Assembly (NCBI GenBank): GCA_041500865.1
Contig: JBGQMY010000002.1
Span: 1,982 to 65,981, forward strand
Direction: 5' to 3'
Source: Candidatus Micrarchaeia archaeon
Lineage (GTDB): Archaea > Micrarchaeota > Micrarchaeia > Anstonellales > J096
Length of the DNA stretch: 64,000 nt
The notes below the pieces were generated by a model that saw only the letters and a list, made by a program, of their open reading frames with translations, was not told the DNA's origin and did no database searches. Both the position numbers and the translations under genes were made by a program. Shown here piece after piece: positions 5,750 through 46,112 of the stretch (positions are counted from its first letter, which is position 1; each line of letters starts with the position of its first letter).

Positions 5750-5769
5750 GCTGTTATTGTGCGGCAAAC

Positions 5770-16566: not shown

Positions 16567-16690
16567 GTAGGGATGGCGGAGCCCGGTCAAACGTGCCAGA
16601 CTCAAGGCGGAAAAAGACAAGGCGTAAATAAAGACACGTGAGACATCTGGTGCCCTAGCGGCTACGTGGGTTCAAATCCCACTCCCTACA
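16567..16690 (+). tRNA. tRNA-Leu(CAA), class II, with a 38-nt intron at the canonical 37/38 position (16607..16644).
   Basis: Acceptor GTAGGGA/TCCCTAC. Anticodon stem CCAGA/TCTGG is restored after removing the intron. Loop CTCAAG with CAA at 16603-16605. Long variable arm. T-arm GTGGG-TTCAAAT-CCCAC. Discriminator A. TTTTTTAACC box about 22 nt upstream. CCA is not encoded. Confidence 0.75.
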
Positions 16691-21470: not shown

Positions 21471-21629
21471 GGTTCGCTTTTGCCTGGCCTTGTTTTTAAA
21501 CATAGCGCCTAAGGAAACCGAGGTTCCCTTGAAGCATTTTTCCAAAAGGCTTCAGCGAAAAACGTTGGCCCAACCCCCCCTTCTTACTAAGCTGTTGCAT
21601 CTGGGGTATTTTTGCCAAACCACAAGATT

Positions 21630-22636: not shown

Positions 22637-22790
22637 TCAACCCTTGAATTTGTACTGCCTGCCGCTGCCGCCCCCTTCCCTCAGGAAGAAATAGTATATG
22701 GCGACTATTATGGCTGCTATCGCCACGATGGCCAATAGCGCCGCGGCCAGCACGCCGACCCAGTCAAGCGGCTTTGGCGGCTGCGCCTGT
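22637..22790 (-). other. C-terminal membrane anchor of the giant protein. TM helix plus basic tail, no PGF motif.
   Basis: LDWVGVLAAALLAIVAIAAIIVAIYYFFLREGGGSGRQYKFKG. Confidence 0.65.
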
Positions 22791-25700
22791 GCGCAAAGTC
22801 CCGCGCTCATGTTGCAGCTGCCTGAGCAGCAGTCGCTGTCAATCTTGCATGCCCCGTTGTCTGCGGCGCACGTGATATTGGCCCCTGAGACATTCTGGGT
22901 CACGTTGGTTGGATGGGTCGCGTTTCCTCCCTGCTGAGCCGCTGCCCTGGCCATTGCGCCAATCACGGCAAACGCGTTGTTGCCTGAGACGTTGTTCAGC
23001 ATTATGGAGACATTGAGGCTGCCGTCGCCATTCACGTCAACGGTCCTGTTCTCGCCCACATAAACGGTGATTGTGCCAGTGAGGCTGTCCACCTGGTATG
23101 CCGCATACTCGGCGCCGACGTCAATCAGGGTGACGTTGATGTACCTGGTGGAGCCGTTGCTTACATACGGGATTTGGCTTGTCTGGTTCCTGGACATGCC
23201 GCCCTGGGTGCCGTTCCCGGCAGTCTGGTTCTGCTGGCCTCCTGCTGCCGCGCAGCTGAACGACACTGTCAGCGAGGCGCTGTCGTAGCCGTCCTTGTCC
23301 GCATACACGACGTACGTGCCGCTTGCGAGGTTGCTGAAGGTGTATCCCGAGGTATATGCCGTATGCCTGTCGTCCGAGTTTATGTAGACGGTAACCCCGC
23401 TAAGCGCCGTGCCGCTGCTGGCTACAGTAACCCTCACGTTGGCAGTTCCGTCGCTGTTGCATGACGTGTAGTTGGATATCGCCATTGAAGGCAGCGCCGC
23501 CCCGCCTCCGCCGCCCCCTCCGCCCCCTCCGCCTCCGCCACCGCTTGTCTTTACGGTAACGGTCCTAGACAGCGAGGATGACGAGTAGTTCTCGGTCGCG
23601 TTGTACACCAGCTTCACTGTGTGAGTTCCTGTCGCAGACCAGGACGTGCTGTTGTAGATGTTGCCGTTGCCTGAGCGCGAGAACGCGCTGTCCAGCCATA
23701 TCTCTATGTGGCCGTTGGCCGGCGTTGTGACAGTGCCGTTGAATGTGACTGTGGCGCCGGTGTTGACGGTTATTCCGCCAGCAACCCCATTGACGGTAAG
23801 GCTTATGCTGGGCGCCGCCTTGGCTATTGTTAAATTATTTGAGGCGGATGCGCCTGTGTAGTTCTCAGTCCCGCTTATGTTGCACACAAAGAGGTATGCC
23901 CCTGCCGGCAGGTTGGCTATGCTTTCGGCGTAGCCTAGACCGCTTGCCATGAACGTGCCGTTCCTGTAAATGGATACGTTAAGGCCGGCTTGGCCGCTGC
24001 ATGAAACGTTTATGTTGCTGTTGTTCCATGTCGGCGTCCATCCTGCTGACGAGGAGAACGTGAGCGCAGTTGACACTTGCGCTATTGTCAGCGTGTTTGA
24101 TGCGCTGCCGTTCGTGTAGTTCTCGTTGCCGCTTGTGTTGCACACATATTCGTATGTGCCTGCAGAAAGGTTCTGCGGGTCGCTCGCAAAGCCCATGCCG
24201 CTGTCAACAAGCGTGCCGTTCCTGTAAAGCTCCATGTTCACCTGCGCGGCTCCCGTGCAGTTGACTATAGTTCCGTAAGGCCAGGTTCCGCTCCATGATG
24301 GTGAAGCTGCCAATGCGGCACTCGGGTCTGCCATAAGCACGGTTATGCTCATGTTTGGCATAGAGTCGTTCAGGTTGCTCCACGTGTCATTGGCAGTCCA
24401 CCTGTAAGTATATTCTCCTGCCGCGAGGTGGCCGGTGTCGTACTCGAACTGGCTGCCTGCCTGGCTTGTGAATGGCGATTGGACCAAAGAGCCGCTGAAG
24501 TTGTTCTCAACAAGCACTGTGTCAAGTCCCGTTTCATCCGTCCAGGTTGCGTTCAGCAGGTATGAGAGGTTGGGCCTGTATGTGTCGTTGATGTTTGCGC
24601 TTGGCTCCAATGCGGTATAATTCGGCGCATTTGATTCAGGCGTGAGGTTCATGGCAAAGAACACTGTGTCGTTGGCCGTGTTGCCTGCCGAGTCGTTTGC
24701 AATCACCGTAATGGTGTGGTTGCCGTCGCTTATGCCAAGGAGCGAACTGATGTTGGAGCATCCGGCAAGGCCGATTGCCGCGCCTCCGTCAACCATGTAT
24801 CTGCAGTATGCAAGGTTCGCATCCGATGCAGTGTAGTTCAGGTCGATGTTGGCCGTGGTGTATATGGTTATGTTGTCTGGCGACTGGATTGCGACTATTG
24901 GCGCAGTGGTGTCAACCGTGAAGGTGCGCCCAGAACTGACTGTTGTGCCTGCGCTGTCGTTGGCCCAGGCCGTCATGTTGTATATTCCGTCGTCAAAGTC
25001 AAGGGTAAATGGGGCACCTGGAGGAGTATAGATTACATTGGTTCCGTTGGTGTAGAACCATACCGTATCCAAGTTCGTGTCATTCGCGCTTATGTTTATC
25101 AGTATTGTGCTGGTGTTGTAGTAATAGCTTAGCAAAGGCGACACTATCGTTATGGTCGGGCTTACCGTGTCGACCGTGAAGTTGTCGGTTCCGCTGACTG
25201 CTATGTTGTTTGCTGCGTCAGAGCAGCTGACATTCCAAAGGTGGCTGGTTTCGGTAGCGTTGTATGACAATGACGCGGGCGTGTTGTTATGCGCATTGAC
25301 ACTGCCTGCAGCCGAGCCGTCAACATAGACGACGCATGTCATGTTTTCCGAAATCGCGTCAACCGCGGTGAACGACAGGCTTACCAGCGATGAGGCCGGG
25401 AAGCTGTTGTTCTCCGGAGCCACAAGGGTTATGCCGGGCGCAGTCGTGTCTATCACTATTATCCTGGTCTCTGTTTTATTGAAGTTGCCGGCCAGGTCGG
25501 ACACCGAGGCATTGAGGTAATACACACCGTCGCTAAGGTTGTTGAAAGTGTGCGCTAATACTAAAATGCCGCTGGCGCTTCCGTTAAAGGTGTCATAGAG
25601 GCCAGCGGGAGTGTAAAGCGTAATTATGCCATTCATGGTGTTGGTATCATTCATAATCAGATTCACGTCTATATTAGGTATCGGGGTTCCCGTTGACGAA

Positions 25701-28700
25701 TTGGTCGTAGGCGAGGCAAACCATATCTGCGGGACAGTCCTGTCAACGGTCACGTTCCTGGTCTCTGTGCTGTTGGAGCGGCCGACCATGTCGTACGCCG
25801 TTGCGTTGAAGTAATACGTGCCTTCTGCAAGGCCGCTGAAGTTCGCAAGGAAGCTGCTTGAGTTGGACCATGTCTGGTTCCTGAGCGCACCGCTCGCGTT
25901 GTACAGCCTGACGGTCACGTTCGCGAAGCTTGAATCATTAACACTGACGTTCGCGATTATGCTGTTCGCAAACGAGGACGAGTTCGTTGACGGCGTTGCA
26001 AAGCGTATCGCCGGGTTTGTCGTGTCCACCGTGAAGTTCACGCTGGCTGTCGAGACGTGGCCGACCATGTCGGTTGACCACACCGTAAGGGTGTTGGCTC
26101 CCTCCGTGAAGGTCCTGTTTACAGGAACCATGTAGGTCTCATTGGCCGTCCCGTTGTAGAACCAGGTCGTGTTCAGGTCTGCATCAGTCACGTTTATGCT
26201 CACAAGCACCGTTGAGTTGCTGTATGCCGTGGCTGCCGGGGATATTATCGTTATGCTTGGCGCTATGGCGTCAAGCGTGACGTTCCTTGTCTCGGTCTTG
26301 TTCGTCCTGCCTGCCCTGTCGTAGACTGTTGCGTTGAAGAAGTACGTGCCATCCCCAAGCCCAGTGACGTTAAGGAATGCCGGGCTGGCAGTTGAGGTCT
26401 GGTTCCTTACCAGCGCGCCTGTTGAGTTGTATACCCTTATCGTGACGTTGGCGAGGTTGGTGTCATTCGCGCTTACGTTTATCTCTATAAAGTTGTTCAA
26501 CGAGGCTGTCACGTTAGTGGTTGGCGCAACAAATGATATTTCGGGGTTTATCGTGTCAACGGTGAATGTCCTGTTCGTTGAGTTGATCCTCCCTGCGGAG
26601 TCGTTCACCCAGGCATACATGCCATAGGTGGCATCGCTGAAGTTCCTGGCAAACGGCGTTCCATTGTATGTTTCATTGTCCGTGCCGTTGTAGAACCAGA
26701 CCGTGTCCTTGTTGGCGTCTGTTGCGCTTATGTTCACCAGTATCGTTGCATTGGTGTAATAAGCCAATGACGGCGACATTATCGCTATTGCCGGGTTTAT
26801 CGTGTCAACAGTGAAGTTCCTTGTTTCGCTCACGACCGTGTTGTTCGCGTCGTCCGTGCAGTTGACATACCATGTGCGGAGCGCGTTGCTGAAGTTCCTT
26901 GTCAGGTTGTACTGCGATGCGTTTGAAACCGCTACTGTTGCGTTGAGCGTGCCGTTTATGTAGATTTTGCACGTTATGCTTGTGTCAACATTGTCATCCG
27001 GCGTGAATGAGAGAGTCACATTGGTAGTTGGAGAGAAGCTGCCTGCGGCTGGCGCATTGAGCGTTATGTTTGGCGGCACTGAGTCAACAGTGAAATTGAC
27101 GCTTGCCGTTGATACGTGCCCGACCATGTCGTTCGCCCAAGCCGTGAGCGTGTTTGCTCCCTGCTGGAATGTCCTTGTGACGGGCGTTCCGTTGTAGGTT
27201 TCGTTGTCCGTTCCGTTGTAGAACCAAGTCGTGTTAAGGTCGGCGTCAGTGGCGCTTATGTTGACCCATATCGTCGCATTGGTGTAATACCTTGCCGTCG
27301 GGCTTATTATTGCCAGGGTTGGCGCGACCGTGTTGAGCGTGACGTTCCTTGTCTCGGTCTTGTTGATCCTGCCTGCCCTGTCGTATGCCGTTGCGTTAAA
27401 ATAATAGACGCCGTCGCTGAGGTTGGAGTAGTTTGCGAACACCGTAGCGGACGATGAGCTGAACGTTGAGTTCCTCAGCCCGCCGGTTGAGTTGTATAGC
27501 CTTACCGTGACGTTCGCGAAGTTGCTGTCATTAACTGAGACATTCGCCAAGACATAGTTATTCAGCGAGAATGAGACATTCGTGGTTGGCGCGACAAACG
27601 CTATTGCCGGGTTTACCGTGTCGACTGTGAAGTTCCTTGTCTCGGTCTTGTTGAGGTTCCCTGCGCTGTCAAACGCCGTTGCGTTGATGTAATAGATGCC
27701 TTCGGCAAGCGACGTCTCGTTGGCAAACAGGTTTGTCAGGGTCCCTGACGTGTTGAAATACAGCCCAGTGGAGTTGTAGAAGAATATCGTTACGTTCCTG
27801 AAGTTTGCGTCGCTGGCCGTGACGTTCACAAGGGCGCTGTCCCTGTTCAGGTATGCGCTAGAGTTTTCCGTAGGCGACTTGAAGATTATTGTCGGCTTTA
27901 TCGTGTCGACCGTGAAGTTCCTGGTTTCGCTGACTGCCGAGTTGTTCGCGTCGTCCGTGCAGTTGACATACCATGTGCGGAGCGCGTTGCTGAAGTTCCT
28001 TGTCAGGTTGTACTGCGACGCGTTTGAAACCGCGGCCGTTGCGTTGAGCGTGCCGTTTATGTAGATTTTGCACGTAATGCTGGTATCCACGTTGTCATCC
28101 GGCGTGAATGAAAGCGTCACGTTTATTGTATTTGAGAATCCTCCTGCAGCAGGCGCATTGAGCGTTATGTTTGGCGGGATTGAGTCTACGCTGAAGTTAA
28201 CGCTGGCTGTCGACAGATGCCCAATCAGGTCGTTTGACCACACAGTAAGCGTGTTTGCCCCTTGCTGGAATGTCCTTGTGACCGGGGTGCCGACAGCATA
28301 AGTCTCGTTGGCCGTGCCGTTGAAGAACCACGTTGAGTTGTCAGAGTCGGTTACGCTTATGTTCACCAGTATGGAGGCGTTGTTGTATAGCTTGCTCGTA
28401 GGCGATATTATGGTTATGCTTGGCGCTGTCGCGTCAATCGTGATGTTCCTTGTCTCTGTTTTGTTTGCCAGCCCTGCCAGGTCATATACGGTTGCGTTGA
28501 AATAGTACAGGCCGTCGCTGAGGTTGGTATAATTTACAAAGACGCTGCCTGGGCTGCTTGAGAACGTTGAGTTTCTCAGCCCGCCGGTCGCGTTGTAGAG
28601 CCTTATCGTGGCGTTGGCGAAGTTCGTGTCGCTGGAGCTAATATTTATTGCAACATAGGCGTTGAGCGAATACGCCGAGGAGTTCGGCGTCGGAGTTGTG

Positions 28701-31700
28701 AATGTTATTGCCGGGTTTATTGTGTCAACAATGAACGTCCTGTTTGTTGAGTTTGTCCTGCCGACTGTGTCGTTGGCCCATGCGGTCATGTTGTACACGC
28801 CGTCCGTGTAGTTAAGCGTTACTGGTCCCGCGTATGTCGTGTTTGCAGTGCCCGTCCCGTTGTAGAACCGCACCGTGTCCAGGTTTGCGTCGCTTGCGCT
28901 TATGTTTATCAGCATGTTGGTCCCGTTTGCGTAATATGCCTGCGAAGGCGACACTATGGATATCGCCGGGTTTGTCGTGTCCACAATCACGTTCCTGACC
29001 CCGGTTGCGTTGGGATTCCCCGCAAGGTCGGAGCAGTTTGCGAAGTAGACGTGGGTGCCGTCGCTGAGGCTGGCCAGCGTGTAGTTGGCCGTCGTGTTTC
29101 CGTCGGAGTTGTGTATCTGCATCGCATATGAGGATGGCAAGGCCGGAATCCTGATGTTGCCGAGGATGTAATTGGCTGACATTCCATAAGTGTTGTCGCC
29201 GTAGCAGGTGGAGTTGCCGTTTGACAACAGATAGCAGGTATGGAAGACGCCTGCTGAAAGCGCAATGGCTTTTCCTCCTGTGTAGTTGGTTGCTTCACCT
29301 GGACCGTTGCCATTGAAGCCGTAGCATGTTGAGTTGCCGTTGCTGAGAAGGTAGCAGGTGTCCAGGTTGCTTGCAGAGACTGCAATGGCGTCGCCACCCG
29401 TGTAGCTGGTTGTTTCGCCATTGCCGCTGTCATAGCCGTAGCATACGGAGTTGCCGCTGCTGAGCACGTAGCATGTGTGGTCCTGGCCTGCAGCAACCGC
29501 GATGGCGTCGCCGCCGGTGTAGTTGGTTGCCTGGCCGGCGCTGCCTACGCATGGCGTGTAACCAAGGCAGTTGGCGTCGCCGTAGCATACGGAGTTGCCG
29601 CTGCTGAGCAGGTAGCAGGTGTCGTAGTCAGTTGCAGAAACTGCGACGGCGTCGCCGCCTGTATAACTGGTCGACTGGTTCGAGCTGTCGTCGCCGTAGC
29701 ATACGGAGTTGCCGTTGCTGAGCACATAGCATGTGTGCTTATATTCCGTTGAGACCGCGATGGCGTTGCCGCCTGTGTAGTTTGTCGACCTGCCGTCGGT
29801 GTTGGAGCCGTAGCATACGGAGTTGCCGTTGCTGAGCACATAGCATGTGTGGTATTCGCCCATGGCAACCGCGATGGCGTTGCCTCCTGTGTAATTTGTT
29901 GCCTCACCGTTGCCATTGAAGCCGTAGCATTTGGAGTTGCCGTTGCTGAGCACATAGCATGTCTGATAAGTGCCTACCGAAATCGGCGCGTTTGAGGACG
30001 CCCTTCTCTGCGCGTCCATTGTGAGCGTGCATGACTGCAGGTTCTCGCTGGAGCTGACGTTTATGGCGATGCTGCCGTTGAGATATGCTGAGGTGTTGGG
30101 CGTCGGGCTCACGAAAGCCAATGCTGGCGCCACGTTGTCTATGCTGATGTTATAGGTGCTGGAGTAGAACCTGCCGTATTCCATCAGCTCCCCGCTTCCG
30201 TCCGCAGCATATGCCACGTCTATTGTAAAGAACGAATACGTGCCGTTGTCTCCGGTCGCATAGACCTTCCAGGTGGCGTTGCACACCTTGCCCTGAGTCA
30301 TGTTGCTGTAGCAGCTGAGGTTGGACGGGTTTGACGAAGTCGTGTAGAACGGCCTTGCCCCAACGGTCGTTGGAACGACGCCCTTGTCAAGCGTTGAGCC
30401 AAGTGCATTGACCCTCGGATATGTGTAGTTGAGCGTTCCTGCGGTGTCAACAATGGGCTTTCCGCCTGTCTTCAGCATCGAATCCACCTCAACCGGAGCC
30501 GGCATCCTGCCGTAGCTCTGGACAAAGAACTGGTTTATGAGCGCGATGGCGCCCGAAACGTGCGGGGTCGCCATTGACGTGCCCTGCTTCGGCGTATGAG
30601 TGCCTGCGAAATCTGTTGCGATTATGCCCACGCCAGGAGCAAGCACGTCAAGCGTCCTGTCCCTGTTGGTAAAGCCCGCTATTGCGTCCGAGTCGTCTGT
30701 TGCGCCCACTGAAATAGCAGTGGAGATGCATGCCGGCGAGCCTATTCCGGGCACGTCAGAAAATGGGTCGGAAGCCCCGGATCCGTGGTGTTCGTTGCCT
30801 GATGCGATGACAACCGAGATGTTGCTATTGCGGGCATTGTATAGATAAGGCGTAAAGGCGTCATCATTGTCGCAAACCTTGCCGTCGCAGCTGCCATAAT
30901 TGCAATCGCTGCCGCCTATGCTTATTGATATGACGCTTATGTTATATAGGCTGGCGTTGTTTATGCACCATTCTATGCCTGCTTCGATATCGGCTTCGGG
31001 GCAGACGTCGCCGGTGCTGTCGCAGACCTTTACCATCGCGATTTTTGCGCCAGGCGCAACGCCCCTGTAAACAGAGTCGATTGAGCCGACAATGCCGGAC
31101 ACGTGCGAGCCGTGGCCGTTGTCGTCAATGAAGTTAGTGTCGTTGTTGTAGAAGTCGTATCCCCCTACAATCTTGCTGCAGTTGTGGCTCGTTATTATGT
31201 CTGCAAGCGTGCAGCTCCCGAAGTCCGGATGCGCGTAGTTTATGCCTGTGTCAAGTATGCACACTGTCTGGCCTGTGCCGTTTATGTTCCGGCCGTTTAT
31301 TGACATGTTCCATAGCTCAGTCGCATTTATGAGCGGAACTGAAACGTCAAGCATGGTATGGAAAGTCCTTGCGATGCGGACAGATGCGACGTTCGGGTTG
31401 GCCATGAGGCTCTTTATGCCCGCAAGCGTCGCAGTCCCCGAGAAGCTGTTCACTGTGGAATACCTGTACTTAACCTTGAAGTCGCCCGAAGAAAGCGTTG
31501 AAATCACGGCAGACTGCACCGAATATACGTTTTCCCTTGTCTTGAGGCTTGCAGCCGGCTCCTTGAGCGTCACGATTACTTCAACCGGGCCGTTCTTTGC
31601 CGCGGAAAGGATGTCCTTGGGCGTCTCGTTTGCGCCCGCCATTATCGGGTCAAGGACCGCGGCAACAGCCCCGCACGGGCCGCCGACGCAGGTCACGGAT

Positions 31701-34700
31701 GCGCTGATGTTGAACGTGGCGTTGTCTTTCATGCTGCTCCTTGTCACGTTGGTTATGTTCGCAACCAATATGCCCTGTTGCTGGACATAGAGATTATACG
31801 TCCCGGCATCACCGTAAAGCTCATCGACCTCAACGTAGTACGTGGCGGTTTCCGGTGCCGTGAACCAGATTTCGCTGTTCCTGTTGATTGCGAATATTAT
31901 GTCATCGCTATATCCCAGTATTGTGCCGGTTGAGTTGTAAAGCTGCATCTGCGTGTCCGTGATTGAGATGGCCGTAAGGTTCTTGGTCCATATGAAATAT
32001 GTATATCCATTTATCGCGTTGAATTTCACGAAGTCTATATCCGTCGGGGTGTTGAACGTGTGCGTCTGCGGCACGCCGGTCGTATTTATCCAATTCGCGC
32101 TGGCGTTGTCGTTGTCCGGCTCGTATGCGTCCGGGCTCAATGGCGCTATGGTGAAGGTTGTCCTTGATGTCGCGTTGTTGCCAGGTTCCGGATATGCGAA
32201 GTCGTATGCAGTCACATTTAACCTGTAGTCGCCCTGGGTGAGCGTCGTTGTGTTGCGCAGGCACCTCAACGTTTCGCCGTTCGGGGCCAATGCGGTGCAG
32301 TTCGCGGTGTTGCTGGTGACGCTCCCGTTTGTCGCATTGTAAACGTATGTCGTTGCGTTTATTGATATCAATATCAGGCTGGGCGCAGTCCCTGTGCCGT
32401 TGACAGTGATGTTCATTATGAAAGACGTTATGTTGGTTGAATAGCCGTCTGCTGGCTTTACGAGGGTTATCACAGGGCTGACGTTCTCCGTGACATTGTA
32501 GCCTGAGAATCCGGAGACGTTGAACGTCAGCGTCCCCGCAACCGCGTAAGTGGCGCCAGAAAGCGAGCAGTTTGTGCCGAGTGTGCGGCATCCTGCATAT
32601 CCGGCAAGGGAGCATATGCCGTTGGAGGATGAATTTATTGAGCATGAGGTTCCGTTGACGTAGCAGTACCCGGTATGCAACTGGCACGTGCCAGTGATTG
32701 GATATGTGGAGCATTTTTGGGTTGTGGCATTGACCGAGCACGTTCCGCCGTTCAGGGTGCTGGAGTTGTAGGTTGTCCAGCTTGCCACATGGACAGAGGA
32801 CTGCTTTGGCGAATCGTCGGCGTATATGCCTGGCTGGGAAACGAACGGCAGGTTGTAGAGCCTCACTGTCGCGTTCGTGTCCAGCTCCACGAAATAGTCC
32901 GTGTCTATGAAAATCCTTGACTGCTCGAACGTGTCGGGCGCCCCTATGTCCACGGTTATCGCAGAGCCAAGGTTGCTGAGCTTGTCCGCGCCAGACCACG
33001 TGGAAATGTTGACGGAGGTGAGGTTTATCAGCGCTGCGCTTGAAAAGTTCGTGCTTGGGCTCAGGCCTCCGCTTGCGCAGGACTCGTTCATCTGTATGTC
33101 TATGATGAAGTTGACCCTGCTGAAGTCAAACACCTTGGTGAAGTTGGTCGTGAGGTTGCCGAAGCGGGTGCACGGGTTGCCAGTCATGTTTGGCACGCCT
33201 ATGTCCTGGAGTATGATTTCAACGGGAGTCATGTTCCATTGGCTGAATTCATCCGTGGCGATTACCCATACCATCCTCTGATTGACGGGGCCGGGCTGTG
33301 CGTACTGGCCTATGCTGCAAGAGCCGTTCCACAGGCCCGTGGCATGGTTGAAAGTCAAATTCAGGATGCCGCCGCAGGCGCTCGCATTGACGTCCGAGAA
33401 GTTAGCGACGACGGATGTGATGTTGCCCTCGCCGGTCGCGTTAACAGAAAGGTTGATTATGGCGTCGTATGGCGAGAAAAAGTTGTCAGGGTTGAGGATT
33501 TGGACGTCCGAGACCGGAAGCTGGCTGCTGAGGTTTGCCAAGACGCCCCATGCCATGGCATGGGCGTTGACATGGTCATCGGCCTCAAAGCCAATCCGGT
33601 ATTCGCCGTCCGGGTCTGCGCGCACAAGCGGGATGTTGGATGACGAATTTACCGGATAGATGGTTATGTTGGAGTTGTTGAACGGGACTTTCTGCGCTGT
33701 GCTCAGGTTGAGGTATATCCTCTGCGGCATGAATTTGGTCTGGTTGTTGGCATTTATGATGCTGGTGGTGCTGAGATTGCAGCCGTCCATGCCGCACCAT
33801 TGCTCGCTCGCTATGCCCAATAAGGTTGCATTCTGGCCGTTGGACATGGACGTATTGTAGATGAGCCACCAGTTGTAGGGCTTTGTGCAGTTGTTATCCT
33901 CCCCGCAGGAGAAAATGAAAGTGCCGTTGCAGTCCCAGGGCGCGGTGTCGTTGATTTTCAGGCAGCCTGGCACTGATGCAGTGGGGCTGTCGTTGCCAAG
34001 CGCGAGAAAGTAAAAATTGTAATAGGCCGAGACGTTCTCGCCATTGAGCGTGTAGGTCTCCTGGCTCCATGTCGTGTTGTAGGCGCCGCTGGCTGGAAAG
34101 TCCCAGTTGGTCCCCTGTGTCTCGTTGCCGGACTGGCCCCACCCGGTCACTACATAACTGTAGTTGTCCAGCACGAAGGGCGTGACGCTCCACAGATACT
34201 TGTCGGTGATGTTCGCCCTCAGGAACCACGTCCTATGATAATAGAGGGAATAATTAAGGTCCATCTTGGAAACCGAAGGCGGGCTGTTGTCCACCGTGAT
34301 GTTGGGAAGCATGTCATAGCCGTATCCGCCTGGTGAAGACGCATTGAGCACTAGCGAGTAGTTTTCGCACTCGCCGGCACAATTTAACGACGTGTCCCAT
34401 GAGCAGATAGGGGAAGGGTCCGTTTCATTGCTTACGGACGCTGTGCCGTTGCATATCGTTGCGTTGTAAGCGCCGTTCCTGTAGAGCGACAGCGCCCAGC
34501 TGGTCATGTTGGGGTCGTACGCTATTCCCTCGACATCCACAACGCCGCCCACGAACTGCATTATCACGCCGCTTATGTTGTCATAGTTCCCTGTTGGGTT
34601 GGTTATTTTGACATCTGGGTTGCCGCCGTTTTCGGATATGTAGACCGGAACTGTCGCGCTGACCGTGACATTGGCGACCGAACTGCCGTAAGATGCGTTT

Positions 34701-35827
34701 GATGATGCATTGAATAAATACTCATTATAGGCCACGACCTGTCCGATGCCGTTGCCGTATATCGCCTGGTAAGTCGTCATCCACGGAGTCAGGCCGCTGG
34801 CATCGGTTGTCGCGTTCCATGCCTGCGCCCCAAGGCCGTTTGTGGCTGTGACGTTCGCGGCATTTACAGGAGCCGTTCCGTTGGAGACGTTTGCGCGGAC
34901 ATACCAGCCGATTGTGAAGTTGCTGGCCGCAACAGAGCCAAGTTGGCCAAGGCTAAGGCCGCTGATGTTGATGAACGAGTTGTTGCTTGAGGACGTGTTT
35001 GAATAAACTTGCCATGTCGTTACGTTGGCGAGGGAAACGTTGGCAATAATGTTGCTTGTCGCATAAGTAAGATGGAAGGCATGCGTAACGTTTGATATTG
35101 AGCCTCCTGTCACGGCATTGCTGCTGTCCACGGAAAATTGGATGCCGTACGTAACTTTTGATATGTAGTTGCCGCTGACTGTGTTGCTATTTGAGTTGGT
35201 GTCAAGCGCTATGCCAATCGGCGACGTGTTATTGATGATGTTGTTGGCTATTAGGTTGCTCGAGGCGCCTGGAATGTAAATGCCGAGCGTTGTGCCTGAG
35301 ATGTTGTTGTTCGTTATGTTGTTGCTTGTTGAGCTGCCGCTGGAGACGTATATTCTTATGCCGTAGCCGTAATTGTATGGGTCGTTGACTGTGGTGTTCG
35401 CGATTGTGTTGCCGGTTATGGTGTTGTTGGCATTGGTGCCTGAAACATATATGTTGATGCCGCTCTGGCTCCTGGTTATGGTGTTGTTCTGGATGGTGCT
35501 GTTGGCCACGCCGCCTGACGTGCGGATGCCGTCGCTGAAGTTCCAGATGTTGCAGTTCTTTATTGTGACGTTGTTCTTGTCAGGGATATAGACGCCATAC
35601 CTTCCGTTATCGGGGGTGACGCCGATTATGGAATATCCGCCGCAGTCAATCACGATGTTGCTTGCATTCACATATACGCAAGCGGTGCCGGTTGAGGCAT
35701 TGGCGACCATGTCGCTTGACATCGTCAGGCTGGCATTGAGGCTTTCTGAGCAGTTCGTTGCGAAGGCCAGAGACGCAAAAACGAAAATCCACGCAATAGC
35801 GTAGCGTATGCTTAGATTACATTGCAT
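22637..35827 (-). CDS. Giant cell-surface protein of about 4,396 aa. It has a signal peptide, parallel beta-helix, subtilisin-like S8 peptidase, RCC1-like propeller, about 25 Ig-like repeats, a Gly14 linker and a C-terminal TM anchor.
   Basis: Single uninterrupted ORF. Strongly Asn/Thr/Ser-rich with hundreds of N-x-S/T sequons. The ATG at 35827 is preferred over the track start at 35860 because the TATA box overlaps 35851-35857 and the paralog starts with the same MQ.NL motif. Confidence 0.85.
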   Translation of the reverse strand: MQCNLSIRYAIAWIFVFASLAFATNCSESLNASLTMSSDMVANASTGTACVYVNASNIVIDCGGYSIIGVTPDNGRYGVYIPDKNNVTIKNCNIWNFSDGIRTSGGVANSTIQNNTITRSQSGINIYVSGTNANNTITGNTIANTTVNDPYNYGYGIRIYVSSGSSTSNNITNNNISGTTLGIYIPGASSNLIANNIINNTSPIGIALDTNSNSNTVSGNYISKVTYGIQFSVDSSNAVTGGSISNVTHAFHLTYATSNIIANVSLANVTTWQVYSNTSSSNNSFINISGLSLGQLGSVAASNFTIGWYVRANVSNGTAPVNAANVTATNGLGAQAWNATTDASGLTPWMTTYQAIYGNGIGQVVAYNEYLFNASSNASYGSSVANVTVSATVPVYISENGGNPDVKITNPTGNYDNISGVIMQFVGGVVDVEGIAYDPNMTSWALSLYRNGAYNATICNGTASVSNETDPSPICSWDTSLNCAGECENYSLVLNASSPGGYGYDMLPNITVDNSPPSVSKMDLNYSLYYHRTWFLRANITDKYLWSVTPFVLDNYSYVVTGWGQSGNETQGTNWDFPASGAYNTTWSQETYTLNGENVSAYYNFYFLALGNDSPTASVPGCLKINDTAPWDCNGTFIFSCGEDNNCTKPYNWWLIYNTSMSNGQNATLLGIASEQWCGMDGCNLSTTSIINANNQTKFMPQRIYLNLSTAQKVPFNNSNITIYPVNSSSNIPLVRADPDGEYRIGFEADDHVNAHAMAWGVLANLSSQLPVSDVQILNPDNFFSPYDAIINLSVNATGEGNITSVVANFSDVNASACGGILNLTFNHATGLWNGSCSIGQYAQPGPVNQRMVWVIATDEFSQWNMTPVEIILQDIGVPNMTGNPCTRFGNLTTNFTKVFDFSRVNFIIDIQMNESCASGGLSPSTNFSSAALINLTSVNISTWSGADKLSNLGSAITVDIGAPDTFEQSRIFIDTDYFVELDTNATVRLYNLPFVSQPGIYADDSPKQSSVHVASWTTYNSSTLNGGTCSVNATTQKCSTYPITGTCQLHTGYCYVNGTSCSINSSSNGICSLAGYAGCRTLGTNCSLSGATYAVAGTLTFNVSGFSGYNVTENVSPVITLVKPADGYSTNITSFIMNITVNGTGTAPSLILISINATTYVYNATNGSVTSNTANCTALAPNGETLRCLRNTTTLTQGDYRLNVTAYDFAYPEPGNNATSRTTFTIAPLSPDAYEPDNDNASANWINTTGVPQTHTFNTPTDIDFVKFNAINGYTYFIWTKNLTAISITDTQMQLYNSTGTILGYSDDIIFAINRNSEIWFTAPETATYYVEVDELYGDAGTYNLYVQQQGILVANITNVTRSSMKDNATFNISASVTCVGGPCGAVAAVLDPIMAGANETPKDILSAAKNGPVEVIVTLKEPAASLKTRENVYSVQSAVISTLSSGDFKVKYRYSTVNSFSGTATLAGIKSLMANPNVASVRIARTFHTMLDVSVPLINATELWNMSINGRNINGTGQTVCILDTGINYAHPDFGSCTLADIITSHNCSKIVGGYDFYNNDTNFIDDNGHGSHVSGIVGSIDSVYRGVAPGAKIAMVKVCDSTGDVCPEADIEAGIEWCINNASLYNISVISISIGGSDCNYGSCDGKVCDNDDAFTPYLYNARNSNISVVIASGNEHHGSGASDPFSDVPGIGSPACISTAISVGATDDSDAIAGFTNRDRTLDVLAPGVGIIATDFAGTHTPKQGTSMATPHVSGAIALINQFFVQSYGRMPAPVEVDSMLKTGGKPIVDTAGTLNYTYPRVNALGSTLDKGVVPTTVGARPFYTTSSNPSNLSCYSNMTQGKVCNATWKVYATGDNGTYSFFTIDVAYAADGSGELMEYGRFYSSTYNISIDNVAPALAFVSPTPNTSAYLNGSIAINVSSSENLQSCTLTMDAQRRASSNAPISVGTYQTCYVLSNGNSKCYGFNGNGEATNYTGGNAIAVAMGEYHTCYVLSNGNSVCYGSNTDGRSTNYTGGNAIAVSTEYKHTCYVLSNGNSVCYGDDSSNQSTSYTGGDAVAVSATDYDTCYLLSSGNSVCYGDANCLGYTPCVGSAGQATNYTGGDAIAVAAGQDHTCYVLSSGNSVCYGYDSGNGETTSYTGGDAIAVSASNLDTCYLLSNGNSTCYGFNGNGPGEATNYTGGKAIALSAGVFHTCYLLSNGNSTCYGDNTYGMSANYILGNIRIPALPSSYAMQIHNSDGNTTANYTLASLSDGTHVYFANCSDLAGNPNATGVRNVIVDTTNPAISIVSPSQAYYANGTNMLINISASDANLDTVRFYNGTGTANTTYAGPVTLNYTDGVYNMTAWANDTVGRTNSTNRTFIVDTINPAITFTTPTPNSSAYSLNAYVAINISSSDTNFANATIRLYNATGGLRNSTFSSSPGSVFVNYTNLSDGLYYFNATVYDLAGLANKTETRNITIDATAPSITIISPTSKLYNNASILVNISVTDSDNSTWFFNGTANETYAVGTPVTRTFQQGANTLTVWSNDLIGHLSTASVNFSVDSIPPNITLNAPAAGGFSNTINVTLSFTPDDNVDTSITCKIYINGTLNATAAVSNASQYNLTRNFSNALRTWYVNCTDDANNSAVSETRNFTVDTIKPTIIFKSPTENSSAYLNRDSALVNVTASDANFRNVTIFFYNSTGLYFNTSGTLTNLFANETSLAEGIYYINATAFDSAGNLNKTETRNFTVDTVNPAIAFVAPTTNVSFSLNNYVLANVSVNDSNFANVTVRLYNSTGGLRNSTFSSSSATVFANYSNLSDGVYYFNATAYDRAGRINKTETRNVTLNTVAPTLAIISPTARYYTNATIWVNISATDADLNTTWFYNGTDNETYNGTPVTRTFQQGANTLTAWANDMVGHVSTASVNFTVDSVPPNITLNAPAAGSFSPTTNVTLSFTPDDNVDTSITCKIYINGTLNATVAVSNASQYNLTRNFSNALRTWYVNCTDDANNTVVSETRNFTVDTINPAIAIMSPSLAYYTNATILVNISATDANKDTVWFYNGTDNETYNGTPFARNFSDATYGMYAWVNDSAGRINSTNRTFTVDTINPEISFVAPTTNVTASLNNFIEINVSANDTNLANVTIRVYNSTGALVRNQTSTASPAFLNVTGLGDGTYFFNATVYDRAGRTNKTETRNVTLDAIAPSITIISPAATAYSNSTVLVSINVTDADLNTTWFYNGTANETYMVPVNRTFTEGANTLTVWSTDMVGHVSTASVNFTVDTTNPAIRFATPSTNSSSFANSIIANVSVNDSSFANVTVRLYNASGALRNQTWSNSSSFLANFSGLAEGTYYFNATAYDMVGRSNSTETRNVTVDRTVPQIWFASPTTNSSTGTPIPNIDVNLIMNDTNTMNGIITLYTPAGLYDTFNGSASGILVLAHTFNNLSDGVYYLNASVSDLAGNFNKTETRIIVIDTTAPGITLVAPENNSFPASSLVSLSFTAVDAISENMTCVVYVDGSAAGSVNAHNNTPASLSYNATETSHLWNVSCSDAANNIAVSGTDNFTVDTVSPTITIVSPLLSYYYNTSTILINISANDTNLDTVWFYTNGTNVIYTPPGAPFTLDFDDGIYNMTAWANDSAGTTVSSGRTFTVDTTAPIVAIQSPDNITIYTTANIDLNYTASDANLAYCRYMVDGGAAIGLAGCSNISSLLGISDGNHTITVIANDSAGNTANDTVFFAMNLTPESNAPNYTALEPSANINDTYRPNLSYLLNATWTDETGLDTVLVENNFSGSLVQSPFTSQAGSQFEYDTGHLAAGEYTYRWTANDTWSNLNDSMPNMSITVLMADPSAALAASPSWSGTWPYGTIVNCTGAAQVNMELYRNGTLVDSGMGFASDPQNLSAGTYEYVCNTSGNENYTNGSASNTLTIAQVSTALTFSSSAGWTPTWNNSNINVSCSGQAGLNVSIYRNGTFMASGLGYAESIANLPAGAYLFVCNISGTENYTGASASNNLTIAKAAPSISLTVNGVAGGITVNTGATVTFNGTVTTPANGHIEIWLDSAFSRSGNGNIYNSTSWSATGTHTVKLVYNATENYSSSSLSRTVTVKTSGGGGGGGGGGGGGGAALPSMAISNYTSCNSDGTANVRVTVASSGTALSGVTVYINSDDRHTAYTSGYTFSNLASGTYVVYADKDGYDSASLTVSFSCAAAGGQQNQTAGNGTQGGMSRNQTSQIPYVSNGSTRYINVTLIDVGAEYAAYQVDSLTGTITVYVGENRTVDVNGDGSLNVSIMLNNVSGNNAFAVIGAMARAAAQQGGNATHPTNVTQNVSGANITCAADNGACKIDSDCCSGSCNMSAGLCAQAQPPKPLDWVGVLAAALLAIVAIAAIIVAIYYFFLREGGGSGRQYKFKG
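23487..23530 (-). repeat. Low-complexity tract encoding Gly14 (CCGCCTCC-type repeats).
   Basis: Direct reading. A slippage-prone homopolymeric codon run in the linker before the last three Ig-like domains. Confidence 0.8.
23560..29100 (-). repeat. Intragenic tandem array of about 25 Ig-like (CARDB/PKD-like) roughly 100-aa domains. Several units are near-identical at the DNA level (approximate).
   Basis: Recurrent motifs NFTVDT(I/V)NPAI and TETRN(V/I)T(L/V)D. Segment 26.9-27.2 kb nearly duplicates 28.07-28.3 kb. Confidence 0.7.
29150..29980 (-). other. RCC1-like beta-propeller repeats in the giant protein (approximate).
   Basis: About 7 tandem units with period about 50 aa: HTCYVLSNGNSVCYG..N..G..T.YTGG.AIAV. 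The nucleotide-level repeats are visible. Confidence 0.6.
30500..31320 (-). other. Subtilisin-like (S8) serine peptidase domain of the giant protein (approximate).
   Basis: Catalytic Asp in VCILDTGIN (about 31258), His in DDNGHGSHVSGIV (about 31105), Ser in GTSMATPHVSGAIALI (about 30572). The D-H-S order is correct. Confidence 0.8.
35000..35760 (-). other. Right-handed parallel beta-helix (PbH1/NosD-like) repeat region of the giant protein (approximate).
   Basis: Repeats of the NNTITGNTIANTT / NNITNNNISGTTLGIYI type. Confidence 0.55.
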
Positions 35828-35848
35828 GGATGGGCTTTGGCTGCGCGC

Positions 35849-35873
35849 CTTTTTAAACATTAATGACGTTGGG
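35849..35873 (-). promoter_or_regulatory. Promoter of the giant gene. The TTTAAAAAG TATA element (minus sense) is 24-30 nt upstream of the ATG at 35827. The block is conserved with 37342-37363.
   Basis: Plus-strand CTTTTTAAACATTAATGACGTTG is 22/23 identical to the block upstream of the 458-aa gene. Confidence 0.6.
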
Positions 35874-35944: not shown

Positions 35945-37321
35945 TTATTTCCTTGCGGAGGGGGAAGGCCGGCCCCGCTTCGCGGCATACAGCAGCAGGG
36001 CAACAACCGCAACGATGACAATTGCCGCAACAAATATCATGACGGCTGATGCCCTGCCGGCCGCGCCGGTGTTGGAGGTTGCGTTCGCCTGCGCTGCCGT
36101 AGCATTGGTTACGTTGGTTTTGGCTCCGACCTGGCCGGTTACGTTTCCATGCGTTATTGTTACATTGTTCATACCTGGGCTTCCGGCGCCGCTCCCGCTG
36201 CCTTCGGTGTAGTTGACTGTTAAGTTTCCTGTTATGTTGCTCAGGACGGTGTTGTTGGTTTCATTGTCGGGATGTATGCCGTCCCCGTCGTCGTCATGGG
36301 TCTCATTCTCATGCACGGTTGCATTGGCGCCGTATGGGCACAGGATTGACAGCCCGTTTGTGTCGTTCGGGCCCGGCAGGGACGGGTCATTCAAGCCCTT
36401 TCCGATTCCGGCATCGCGCAGCGCCAGGGCAGGAAAGGGGACTGCGTTCCCTTCCTTGCCGCGGCATTCTGCAGAGCCGTTGCTGAAAAGGACGCACCTG
36501 AATGAGCCGCCTGCCGCTGCAAGGCTGCTGTTGAGGACAAGGATGGCCTGGCGCCTGCCCGCTTCGGGTGATGGCACGGTGCTCGTGATGTTGAGGCGCT
36601 TGTCAAAGCTCTCCGTCCTGGAGATATAATTGATGCCAAGGAAGCAGGAGCGCGTGTCATTGTCCAATATCAGGTTTACTGTCACATTGGCGTACGGCAG
36701 GCCGAATGGGCACAGGGGCGCCAGCATGGATGAGATGTTCGGGTCAGGCTTGGAGCCAGGCGAACCTTTTTCCAGCAGATGCGAAATGCCGGAGATGAGC
36801 TGGTCGGGGGCAGGCTTTCCATCCTGTTCCGCGCCGTTGCATTTTGCGGTGCCGTTGGGGTCTATCGGCGGGTGTTCCTGCTGGCCTGAGCCTTGGCTGC
36901 CGCCCCCATCTTGATTGCCTGCTCCGGAGCCGTTGGTGAAAAGCTGGCACGTGAATGAGCCGCCCCCTTCGGAAAGGCTTTTGTTGAGCATCATGACGAA
37001 TTGCTTGCTTTCATCGCTGATTGAGGCATTGGGCTCGCCTCCTGTGATGTTAATTAGTTTATCAATTTCCAGCTGGCTGGAGACGTAATTGACGTCAAGT
37101 GCGCAGTAATGGGCATCGTAGTCCGCTATAAGGCTTATTGTGACATTGGCGTAGTTCATTGGGCCATTGGGACCGGTGCCGTTTTGGTCGCCGCCGTTGT
37201 GCTGGCCGCCTGTGCCGTTCTGGTCGTCTCCGCCCGGAGGCCCTGACGGCTCTGCGAACGCCATTGAGGCAAAAACAAGCATCCACGCGATGGCGCAACA
37301 CACGACAAGATTAGACTGCAT
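35945..37321 (-). CDS. 458-aa secreted surface protein with two internal Cys-containing repeat domains, many N-glycosylation sequons and a C-terminal TM anchor. Paralogous signal peptide and anchor to the giant protein.
   Basis: N-terminus MQSNLVVCCAIAWMLVFASMAFAEP versus giant MQCNLSIRYAIAWIFVFASLAFATN. C-terminus VMIFVAAIVIVAVVALLLYAAKRGRPSPSARK. Two roughly 130-aa repeats (YANVT..L..D.D...C.L..NY.S......DK..NIT ... GGSF.C.LF.NGS). Confidence 0.7.
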   Translation of the reverse strand: MQSNLVVCCAIAWMLVFASMAFAEPSGPPGGDDQNGTGGQHNGGDQNGTGPNGPMNYANVTISLIADYDAHYCALDVNYVSSQLEIDKLINITGGEPNASISDESKQFVMMLNKSLSEGGGSFTCQLFTNGSGAGNQDGGGSQGSGQQEHPPIDPNGTAKCNGAEQDGKPAPDQLISGISHLLEKGSPGSKPDPNISSMLAPLCPFGLPYANVTVNLILDNDTRSCFLGINYISRTESFDKRLNITSTVPSPEAGRRQAILVLNSSLAAAGGSFRCVLFSNGSAECRGKEGNAVPFPALALRDAGIGKGLNDPSLPGPNDTNGLSILCPYGANATVHENETHDDDGDGIHPDNETNNTVLSNITGNLTVNYTEGSGSGAGSPGMNNVTITHGNVTGQVGAKTNVTNATAAQANATSNTGAAGRASAVMIFVAAIVIVAVVALLLYAAKRGRPSPSARK

Positions 37322-37341: not shown

Positions 37342-37363
37342 CTTTTTAAACATTATGACGTTG
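37342..37363 (-). promoter_or_regulatory. Promoter of the 458-aa gene, conserved with 35849-35873.
   Basis: CTTTTTAAACATTATGACGTTG. TATA is 23-30 nt upstream of the ATG at 37321. Confidence 0.6.
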
Positions 37364-37399: not shown

Positions 37400-37867
37400 T
37401 CATCCGGCAACGCACTCGCTGAAGGATACTATGAATGAGTTGGATGCTTCCTTTCTCATCAGATCATACAGTAATGGCATGGATTCTAGGATATTTCTGA
37501 TTTTGTCGTGCCTTGATTGCGAGGCCATGCTTAATGGGGTCCAGCCGTCATTGTTCTTTGCCTCGATGCTTGCTCCTTTTCCGAGCAGCAAGGCGCAGGT
37601 TTGGGTGTGTCCGTTCCTTGCGGCATGCATGAGCGGAGTCATGCCGCTGCCGCCTTTTGCCTCTATGCTTGCGCCAAGCTTCAGCAGCGTTTCAATGCCT
37701 GTATTGTCGCCGCTCTCTGCGGATTCCAGCAGTTCATTGTTGAGCCGCCTTTGCCCTTCTGCCGATAATGCCGGATTCTTCAATGCCGGCTTTTCGCTGG
37801 GCATGATGTCTGCTTTCAATTTAACTGGTTCTGTTGCCGGATTGTTTTGGAGCGTCTTTTCCTGCAT
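37400..37867 (-). CDS. Ankyrin-repeat protein. Likely start MQEKTLQNNP. C-terminal tail ..FIVSFSECVAG.
   Basis: ANK repeats. The track start at 38020 is upstream. The ATG at 37867 is preceded by TTTGCCGCACAATA (shared with the 5749 paralog) and a TTTTTAATT box. Confidence 0.75.
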   Translation of the reverse strand: MQEKTLQNNPATEPVKLKADIMPSEKPALKNPALSAEGQRRLNNELLESAESGDNTGIETLLKLGASIEAKGGSGMTPLMHAARNGHTQTCALLLGKGASIEAKNNDGWTPLSMASQSRHDKIRNILESMPLLYDLMRKEASNSFIVSFSECVAG

Positions 37868-38090
37868 GTATCTATTGTGCGGCAAAGCAATTAAAAACAG
37901 CGCGCAGCGCCCTAAATGCCTTCTTTTGAACCCAAGGGCCTTTTCTTTCCCCAAGTGCTTTCTTTTTCCAATGCGCATCAGCGCCAAAAGCAGGGGGGCG
38001 GGAGGAGCTTGGAACTGCACAGTTTCGTGGGCCGTCTTTTATGCCAAAGGCAAAACAATGTGGGTATTGCCTGCTGGCCCACGACACTGT

Positions 38091-46081: not shown

Positions 46082-46112
46082 TTTTTAAACACTTATTCAC
46101 ACAGTAAGCGCA
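46053..46112 (+). repeat. Copy 1 of a roughly 60-bp direct repeat (3' end of the DUF655 gene plus the TTTTTAAACA promoter plus the ankyrin ATG).
   Basis: GTGACGCAGCCGCCGAAGGAAGCAATCTGATTTTTAAACACTTATTCACACAGTAAGCGCATGG. Confidence 0.8.

Follow-up and report, generated by a model that had tools for sequence, protein, structure and literature searches.

A minus-strand gene of 13.2 kb in Candidatus Micrarchaeia archaeon encodes a multidomain protein of about 4,400 amino acids (aa), referred to here as the giant protein. The gene lies on contig JBGQMY010000002.1 (GenBank assembly GCA_041500865.1), within a stretch of 64,000 nucleotides (nt) that was analysed as a whole; this stretch is called the window, and its numbering is used throughout. 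We propose that the giant protein is a Sec-exported, N-glycosylated surface protein of a DPANN archaeon, for which contact-dependent binding and proteolysis of another surface is the most likely, although far from certain, role. Relatives have its modules on separate proteins, and their combination here makes an unusually large mosaic rather than a new kind of system. What is new appears to be the particular fusion and the size, as all modules except for one orphan core are known from related proteins. An earlier note on this DNA, made from the sequence alone, had described a chain with a signal peptide, a parallel beta-helix, a subtilisin-like S8 peptidase, RCC1-like blades, a long array of immunoglobulin (Ig)-like repeats and a C-terminal membrane anchor. 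The domains that it listed, the location at the cell surface and the capacity for N-glycosylation could be corroborated, whereas the attachment role that it suggested is a deduction from the types of domains.

Integrity of the gene

The open reading frame (ORF; 22637..35860, minus strand) comprises 4407 codons counted from the first ATG and contains no internal stop, in agreement with the single ORF of about 4,400 aa described before; residue numbers refer to this 4407-aa version. It is a real, intact gene and not an assembly artefact. JGI contig Ga0534157_0000083 matches the window at 100% identity over the part that it covers, and the same holds for two Logan contigs of SRR29605729. The NCBI assembly GCA_041480205.1 deviates from the window by eight substitutions and one 3-nt indel, which keep the frame (4395 aa). 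Frameshifts smoothed over by the assembly, a risk raised in the earlier note, are thus not seen in these separately recorded assemblies. All differences between the NCBI and JGI records are confined to a patch of 77 nt within the Ig-like array (window 26644-26720, aa 3047-3073), which may reflect gene conversion or strain variation. The Logan assembly breaks at window position 26387, inside the repeat array and about 260 nt from this patch. The G+C content of the gene region (0.52-0.57) is similar to that of the remaining window.

The longest exact DNA repeat within the coding sequence measures 78 nt, and paralogous repeat blocks are about 80% identical as DNA. Six comparisons of repeat blocks gave a synonymous divergence (dS) of 0.8-1.5 and a ratio of non-synonymous to synonymous divergence (dN/dS) of 0.12-0.28. 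For these reasons a repeat collapse is unlikely; the repeat copies are old and have been maintained as coding sequence under purifying selection. ORFs of the gene region in other frames or on the plus strand gave no family match, and coding in these frames was rejected for this reason. It is therefore highly improbable that the ORF is chimeric, repeat-collapsed or a pseudogene, and does not exist as a single gene. Such an explanation could draw on the facts that the gene was seen solely in short-read metagenomes, that one assembly stops within the array and that two differ over the variant patch. It is opposed by the divergence of the repeats, by the frame being kept across 13.2 kb, by the absence of family matches in the other frames, and by the presence of the gene's own promoter-like element and signal peptide at its start and of a transmembrane anchor at its end.

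Domain architecture

The features of the gene and its product are as follows, from the promoter side to the C-terminus; the repeat hidden Markov model (HMM), which was used to delimit the Big_13 copies, was built from the protein's own repeats.

35849..35871, minus strand: promoter-like element CAACGTCATTAATGTTTAAAAAG, its putative function judged from archaeal promoter geometry
35759..35827, minus strand: signal peptide MQCNLSIRYAIAWIFVFASLAFA, aa 12-34, a hydrophobic segment (start codon 35827-35825)
34901..35683, minus strand: right-handed parallel beta-helix of the NosD / Beta_helix type, aa ~60-320 (Pfam)
32804..34735, minus strand: orphan conserved core, aa 376-1019 (~645 residues), without family or structure match
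32567..32740, minus strand: cysteine-rich segment, aa 1041-1098, with eight Cys at a spacing of 7-10 residues, as read from the sequence
32144..32479, minus strand: isolated Big_13-like Ig domain, aa 1128-1239 (repeat HMM, E=2.6e-6)
31823..32035, minus strand: probable pre-peptidase C-terminal-type (PPC) domain, aa 1276-1346 (PF04151, 4.3e-4, below the cut-off)
31376..31579, minus strand: putative I9-type subtilase propeptide in mid-chain position, aa 1428-1495 (PF05922, 17 bits, cut-off 21.2)
30524..31279, minus strand: Peptidase S8 catalytic domain, aa 1528-1779 (PF00082, 5.2e-39)
30146..30463, minus strand: post-S8 domain, aa ~1800-1905 (phmmer matches in 39 of 120 S8 relatives)
29999..30130, minus strand: N-terminal half of a split Big_13 domain, aa 1911-1954 (repeat HMM from model position 1, E=6.9e-6)
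29141..29998, minus strand: seven-bladed compact RCC1-like propeller of the BLIP-II/CRINKLY4 type, aa 1955-2240 (RCC1_2, AF2 and Foldseek)
28973..29101, minus strand: remaining, C-terminal half of this Big_13 domain, aa 2254-2296 (match to positions 43-92 of the repeat HMM, E=6e-9)
24641..28972, minus strand: 16 contiguous Big_13 Ig-like domains, aa 2297-3740 (each with E between 1e-24 and 2e-34)
23546..24628, minus strand: about four further beta-sandwich domains, X25 / Big_3_5-like, aa 3745-4105 (Pfam)
23501..23542, minus strand: Gly14 tract with mixed GGN codons, aa 4107-4120 (sequence)
23264..23437, minus strand: CarboxypepD_reg-like (transthyretin-like) domain, aa 4142-4199 (PF13620, 2.4e-5, below the cut-off)
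22793..22870, minus strand: six-Cys motif C-x6-C-x5-CC-x3-C-x6-C with knottin-like spacing, aa 4331-4356 (sequence)
22640..22762, minus strand: transmembrane helix, aa 4367-4393 (hydropathy scan), with a basic tail of 14 residues, REGGGSGRQYKFKG, behind it in the cytoplasm

The S8 domain represents a bona fide subtilase and is apparently active, judging from its conserved residues. It matches the subtilase profile with 134.7 bits (cut-off 21.8), and a PDB search returned the Tk-SP structure 3afg at 4.9e-31 with the catalytic motifs aligned. D1537 (ILDTG), H1583 (GHGSH) and S1762 (GTSMATPH) align with those of Tk-SP, as does the oxyanion residue N1689 (SGNE), so that the intact D/H/S residues reported previously are confirmed. 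PDB alignments reach into the propeptides of pro-Tk-SP (3afg) and pro-subtilisin E (3whi), and homologues are annotated with PF05922; a PPC domain is likewise annotated at the equivalent position in S8 homologues. The post-S8 domain had no match in Pfam. I9 propeptides serve as intramolecular chaperones and inhibitors of the protease that follows them. Since the putative I9 propeptide resides in mid-chain, normal subtilase maturation would cut the protein near aa ~1510.

Downstream of this cassette, the earlier note had recognized about seven RCC1 blades. A propeller of seven blades is indeed predicted, but it does not conform to canonical RCC1 (PF00415), whose four-stranded blades comprise 51-68 residues and whose model gave only E=0.046 (14.7 bits, below the cut-off of 21.7). 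RCC1_2 (PF13540) instead matched in seven stretches (4.6e-28, 96.7 bits, cut-off 22), and BLIP-II proteins were the only matches in a sequence search of the PDB with the propeller (1.6e-10). An AF2 model calculated from an alignment of 29 sequences has a predicted local distance difference test score (pLDDT) above 90 over aa 1955-2240 and consists of seven blades with three strands and ~40 aa each, which provides the structure prediction that had been recommended for this region. The best Foldseek matches (3qi0, 1jtd and 7a0j) are BLIP-II and the CRINKLY4 ectodomain, with E around 1e-14 and a target-normalised TM-score of ~0.77. Every blade carries two nearly invariant Cys residues, which fits a fold that is extracellular and stabilised by disulfides.

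The repeat HMM matches directly before the propeller with model positions 1-66 and directly after it with positions 43-92. Because one Big_13 match is split in this way, the propeller seems to occupy a loop of one such domain, and thus to be nested within it. The flanks of the AF2 model are of low confidence, and the evidence for nesting is therefore that of the sequence. A split Big_13 domain also brackets the propellers of six homologous proteins (P0148, P0149, P0238, P0172, P0267 and P0277; P labels denote homologous metagenomic or DPANN proteins) and does so repeatedly in P0132, which makes this arrangement a recurrent composite module. Other metagenomic giants contain it up to about seven times. 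In P0148 and P0149, another insert of a different kind (~150 aa) is found at the equivalent Big_13 position.

The Ig-like stalk is dominated by Big_13 domains (PF19077; 150 bits, 3e-44), which form a tandem array with a super-repeat of ~367 aa (1101 nt). Besides the 16 contiguous full copies, the repeat HMM recovered the copy split around the propeller and the one at aa 1128-1239. The total of about 25 Ig-like repeats given before is roughly right if some 6-8 other beta-sandwich domains are counted as well; the single supported family comprises only ~18. The domains following the array at aa 3745-4105 share 46-54% identity among their internal repeats and match PF22058 (6e-7) and, below the cut-off, PF16640 (2e-5). 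A Gly14 linker and a C-terminal transmembrane anchor are both present as the earlier note had it, but they are not adjacent: the tract, likely a flexible hinge, is situated 246 residues before the helix. The six-Cys motif borders the membrane on its outer side and gave only faint Conotoxin/UPF0506 matches. Neither PGF-CTERM nor other sorting-signal models of NCBIfam and Pfam matched the protein. Before addition of glycans, the mature chain amounts to ~462 kDa with an isoelectric point (pI) of 4.4.

At the opposite end, the hydrophobic leader at aa 12-34 agrees with the predicted signal peptide, and the parallel beta-helix is supported by PF05048 (NosD; 4.2e-18, 66 bits, cut-off 23.6) as well as PF13229 (Beta_helix; 4.6e-14, 52.8 bits, cut-off 25.9), both above threshold as the initial description would predict; these Pfam matches run from aa ~64 to at least aa 215. 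The orphan core is of a different kind. Sequence searches with it against Pfam, NCBIfam and the PDB yielded zero matches, and a word-index search of 5.8 billion proteins identified P0130 as the sole homologue (35% identity over 685 aa). The AF2 model derived from the resulting two-sequence alignment had a pLDDT of 31.6 and was not used.

Sequons and glycosylation

The giant protein contains 300 N-x-S/T sequons, compared with 107 +/- 8 (maximum 137) in 1000 shuffled sequences, i.e. 2.8 times the expectation, and 134 occurrences of the reversed motif. As many as 60% of its Asn residues sit in sequons, and each Big_13 repeat carries 6-11 of them, which bears out the description of the repeats as sequon-saturated. 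In the window, only proteins with export signals show this excess, and it is highest in two of them: there are 6.8 sequons per 100 aa in the giant protein and 5.9 in a 458-aa exported neighbour, but ~0-1 in cytoplasmic proteins. Among the DPANN S8 relatives, the median density is 3.9 sequons per 100 aa, with an observed/expected ratio of 2.6, and P0034, P0006, P0130 and P0172 reach 6.5-7.9 per 100 aa. Sequon saturation is thus general to secreted proteins of this lineage and not special to the giant protein.

The AglB oligosaccharyltransferase gene that had been noted in the same window was confirmed at 12418-15414. It is located 7 kb from the giant gene on the opposite strand, with three genes and a tRNA in between, and its proximity gives no specific link between the two. 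As an export signal, sequons and AglB are all encoded, the giant protein is a candidate AglB substrate, and the capacity for its N-glycosylation is present.

Relatives and mosaic origin

Three sets of relatives were compared: the 120 nearest S8 proteins, the best 150 propeller proteins among 1.84 billion representatives, and 80 related metagenome loci (L labels). Closest to the S8 cassette are proteases of 1,000-1,500 aa with 40-47% identity, almost all of them from DPANN archaea (labelled Woesearchaeota, Aenigmarchaeota, Micrarchaeota, Nanoarchaeota and similar). Their cassette begins ~50 aa into the protein, as opposed to ~1,270 aa in the giant protein. Neither the propeller nor the orphan core was found in the 120 closest S8 relatives, and no S8 domain was found in the best 150 propeller relatives, which include giants of up to 7,013 aa with up to about two dozen matched stretches. 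The metagenomes were scanned with the segment reaching from S8 to the propeller, and all loci retrieved were S8 relatives. At these 80 metagenome loci, the S8 domain usually lies 150-260 aa from the beginning of the ORF, the ORFs extend to 3,741 aa, and no propeller, beta-helix or orphan core was detected within 10 kb. The absence of the S8-propeller fusion from all three sets supports the view that this domain combination is unusual.

Mid-chain subtilase cassettes nevertheless recur in the family, as can be seen from L149, L135 and L156, where S8 lies ~1,690 residues into an ORF of ~2,230 aa and is followed by just 287 residues. L149 has three S8 matches at one locus. Partial combinations of the other modules exist as well. 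P0149 (2,125 aa) joins a beta-helix, Ig domains, a propeller and Big_13 without S8; P0060 has a beta-helix and S8 together; and P0130 (1,472 aa), which is sequon-rich and has a C-terminal transmembrane anchor, carries the orphan core. With the modules and their partial combinations being separate in relatives, the giant protein reads as a fusion of cassettes. A full-length orthologue was not found, nor was a giant gene beside HtpX in the nearest available Micrarchaeota genomes (GTDB; HtpX identity 37-43%). Neither the 4407-aa nor the 4396-aa product was present when looked up by exact match in the protein collection. Proteins of that size are seemingly absent from it, which explains why the giant protein did not retrieve itself among the S8 or propeller relatives.

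Proposed function

According to our proposal, the protein would be exported by Sec and held by its single C-terminal transmembrane helix, with nearly the whole chain extracellular and the N-terminus distal. From the membrane outward, it would consist of the cysteine-knot-like motif and small beta domains, the Gly14 hinge, the stalk and a working head. The stalk of ~20 Ig-like domains could measure several tens of nanometres if extended, and a glycan coat would shield it from proteolysis. The head would comprise the Ig-nested propeller, the subtilase cassette and the 645-residue orphan module, with the NosD-type beta-helix at the tip. Beta-helix and orphan core may serve as carbohydrate- or surface-binding modules and the propeller as a protein-binding one, and the target may be the envelope of a host or partner cell, or an external protein. 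A maturation cut near aa ~1510 would leave two pieces, a head fragment from the N-terminus and a protease-stalk fragment on the anchor. Any role in cell-cell or host attachment is inferred here from domain types alone.

Several observations weigh against this proposal. The orphan core, which matches no family or structure, makes up ~15% of the chain, and the I9 match stays under the Pfam cut-off (17 versus 21.2 bits). Neither a full-length orthologue nor, near HtpX in the nearest available Micrarchaeota genomes, a syntenic giant gene was found that could speak for conservation of the whole architecture. The exact number of repeats depends on short-read assemblies, one of which is broken at window position 26387, and two assemblies disagree over the 77 nt at 26644-26720. 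Finally, the organism is known from metagenome assemblies only, and that it depends on a host is an assumption drawn from where its homologues belong.

The main rival, which we consider possible but clearly less probable, is a nutritional cell-envelope proteinase comparable to lactocepin or pyrolysin, which would digest environmental proteins to feed a small, auxotrophic cell and would involve no partner cell. The Ig array would then be merely a spacer lifting the enzyme above the surface layer (S-layer), and the other modules would bind substrate polymers. This would be in line with the closest cassette relatives, which are ordinary secreted S8 proteases of 1,000-1,500 aa with Ig-like or PKD domains, and with the order of S8, beta-sandwich spacer and C-terminal anchor, which resembles characterised cell-envelope proteinases. 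However, it is hard to see why a plain feeding protease would require a protein-binding propeller, or some ~1,500 residues with beta-helix and orphan core distal to it, and most relatives have S8 only 150-260 aa from the start of the ORF. The nutritional role and binding with proteolysis of another surface are not mutually exclusive. As unlikely as the assembly artefact discussed above, or nearly so, is a main S-layer or sheath glycoprotein with vestigial enzyme-like domains. The signal peptide, a pI of 4.4, dense sequons and a C-terminal anchor are typical traits of archaeal S-layer glycoproteins, but no S-layer domain or PGF-CTERM model of Pfam or NCBIfam matched, and the intact triad and oxyanion Asn oppose a vestigial enzyme. 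With 462 kDa, the protein also exceeds the usual 40-200 kDa, the S-layer protein of Micrarchaeum having 101 kDa (bioRxiv 10.1101/2021.04.28.441871). On the grounds of the unmatched models and the wrong size, identity as an S-layer protein was rejected.

A bolder variant of contact-dependent proteolysis, which we regard as rather improbable, is a self-cleaving machine in two pieces. Here, I9/S8 autoprocessing would sever the head of ~1,500 residues with beta-helix and orphan core, the I9 domain would latch this head to the active site and keep the protease inhibited, by analogy with the prodomain of PCSK9, and contact with the target, sensed by the Big_13-nested propeller, would release or degrade the latch, so that the adhesin head is freed and the protease activated simultaneously.

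DPANN archaea rely on physical contact with other cells, and few of the molecules that establish and exploit this contact are known. The giant protein is a clear case of an archaeal giant surface protein with an unambiguous, apparently active subtilase, whereas the protease assignment in the SPEARE proteins (see below) is disputed. Its putative mid-chain propeptide leads to a concrete prediction of autoprocessing, its Big_13-nested compact propeller may help to annotate further giant proteins, and it illustrates a route of assembly by fusing cassettes that relatives hold as separate proteins of 1,000-2,000 aa. The significance lies in cataloguing and in the generation of hypotheses rather than in a new principle.

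Gene start and neighbourhood

The true start of the giant gene is M12 (window 35827), which yields a product of 4,396 aa. The gene callers of two public records begin at this codon (4396 and 4395 aa), and a TATA-like TTTAAAAA at window 35850-35857 is centred ~26 nt upstream of its ATG. The first ATG of the ORF falls inside this TATA-like box, and M1 was rejected as start codon for this reason; of the ORF as first described, the frame itself stands but its first-ATG start does not. The distance from the TATA-like box to M12 would suggest a leaderless or short-leader archaeal mRNA. A near-identical promoter-like element occurs at 37342-37363, in front of the upstream 458-aa gene (window 35945-37321, minus strand), and the signal peptides of the two proteins are identical in 15 of 23 residues. 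The shared 23-nt element and the homologous signal peptide thus point to a duplicated promoter-plus-leader cassette, which looks like it serves two surface proteins that are otherwise unrelated. The 458-aa neighbour has 27 sequons where 5.9 are expected, and a C-terminal transmembrane anchor of its own.

The order on the minus strand is the 458-aa exported protein, the giant protein, HtpX (M48) and an orphan protein of 1,510 aa. HtpX is closest to that of Micrarchaeota (42-43% identity), and further archaeal markers in the window are AglB, an intron-containing tRNA and the archaeal-type promoter. A DPANN source with a probable relationship to Micrarchaeota is likely from these features. The tRNA is a 124-nt match (window 16567-16690, plus strand) that was found by Rfam and missed by ARAGORN, and it fits an intron-containing archaeal tRNA. 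The 1,510-aa orphan (window 16971-21503, minus strand) has an N-terminal leader, a sequon-bearing ectodomain of ~230 aa, a transmembrane segment at ~243-265 and a cytoplasmic part of ~1,250 residues in which K, E and A are abundant; for this protein, Pfam, NCBIfam and the PDB gave no match. Pfam annotation of matching public contigs places ankyrin-repeat genes at window 1579-2517, ~5003-5767, 37400-38020, 46112-46732 and other positions, one of them directly upstream of the surface-protein pair. Such a set is uncommon in archaea and recalls the effectors of symbionts. An IS605 OrfB/TnpB-like gene (window 43491-44684, minus strand; NCBI annotation) lies between the genes for ribosomal protein L21e and TBP, and the JGI contig terminates inside it at window position 44291.

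Comparison with known systems

Giant, C-terminally anchored, Ig-rich proteins are known from cultivated DPANN symbionts, and a role in host interaction has been proposed for them, among them the SPEARE giants SVXNc_0300 and BNXNv_0298 of the Nanohaloarchaeota (PMC6642349, PMC10266531). The giant protein resembles SPEARE proteins in its DPANN origin, a length of thousands of residues, the Sec signal, the mostly extracellular chain, Ig arrays together with beta-propellers and a transmembrane helix near the C-terminus. The defining feature of SPEARE proteins is a conserved ATPase domain at the cytoplasmic C-terminus, which was initially taken for a restriction enzyme and subsequently interpreted as VirB4/TraG-like; at least one laminin-G domain and a VirB4-like gene next door are further characteristics (PMC6642349, PMC10266531). 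Their assignment as serine proteases is disputed. By contrast, the giant protein ends in a cytoplasmic tail of 14 residues, is flanked by HtpX and orphan genes, and has an unambiguous S8 match. Pfam scans of the whole protein and of segments revealed no laminin-G domain, and Pfam and NCBIfam no SPEARE-type cytoplasmic ATPase domain. Without the cytoplasmic ATPase, for which the 14 residues beyond the transmembrane helix leave no room, without laminin-G and without a VirB4 neighbour, the giant protein is not a member of the SPEARE group, and this assignment was rejected.

Cell-envelope proteinases provide a second point of reference. Lactocepin PrtP, the streptococcal C5a peptidase and pyrolysin have an N-terminal prepro-S8 arrangement with a PA insert in the catalytic domain and measure 1,100-2,000 aa; the C5a peptidase doubles as an adhesin. 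Like them, the giant protein combines a subtilase on a beta-sandwich spacer with a C-terminal anchor. It differs by its large pre-protease head, with the cassette starting from aa ~1270, and by more than twice the length; Pfam detected no PA domain, so that the combination of N-terminal prepro-S8 and PA insert is not present. For giant proteins of bacteria that carry S8 at the N-terminus, it has been proposed that this domain cleaves the protein itself (bioRxiv 10.1101/2023.11.21.568195). As to the propeller, BLIP-II and CRINKLY4 are the best structural matches and share the seven three-stranded blades of ~40 residues, and the paired blade Cys recall the cysteine-rich CRINKLY4 repeats. Identity is only ~20%, and the propeller of the giant protein is nested in an Ig-like domain of an archaeal giant.

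Closer counterparts of the modules are found among the DPANN archaea. Their S8 proteases (e.g. P0001-P0040), and the solved archaeal subtilase Tk-SP (3afg), are the nearest counterparts of the PPC-I9-S8-postS8 cassette, whose I9 part is putative in the giant protein, and likewise have an intact triad; frequent Big_13 or PKD tails and sequon enrichment are further features that the DPANN proteases have in common with the giant protein. They comprise 1,000-1,500 aa with the cassette following the signal peptide, whereas in the giant protein ~1,270 residues precede the cassette and another ~2,450 come after it. P0149, P0148 and P0130 are without the S8 cassette and two to three times shorter, but they have the same module vocabulary, the Big_13-nested propeller and the density of sequons: the propeller is 63-64% identical to that of the giant protein, and the orphan core of P0130 is 35% identical.

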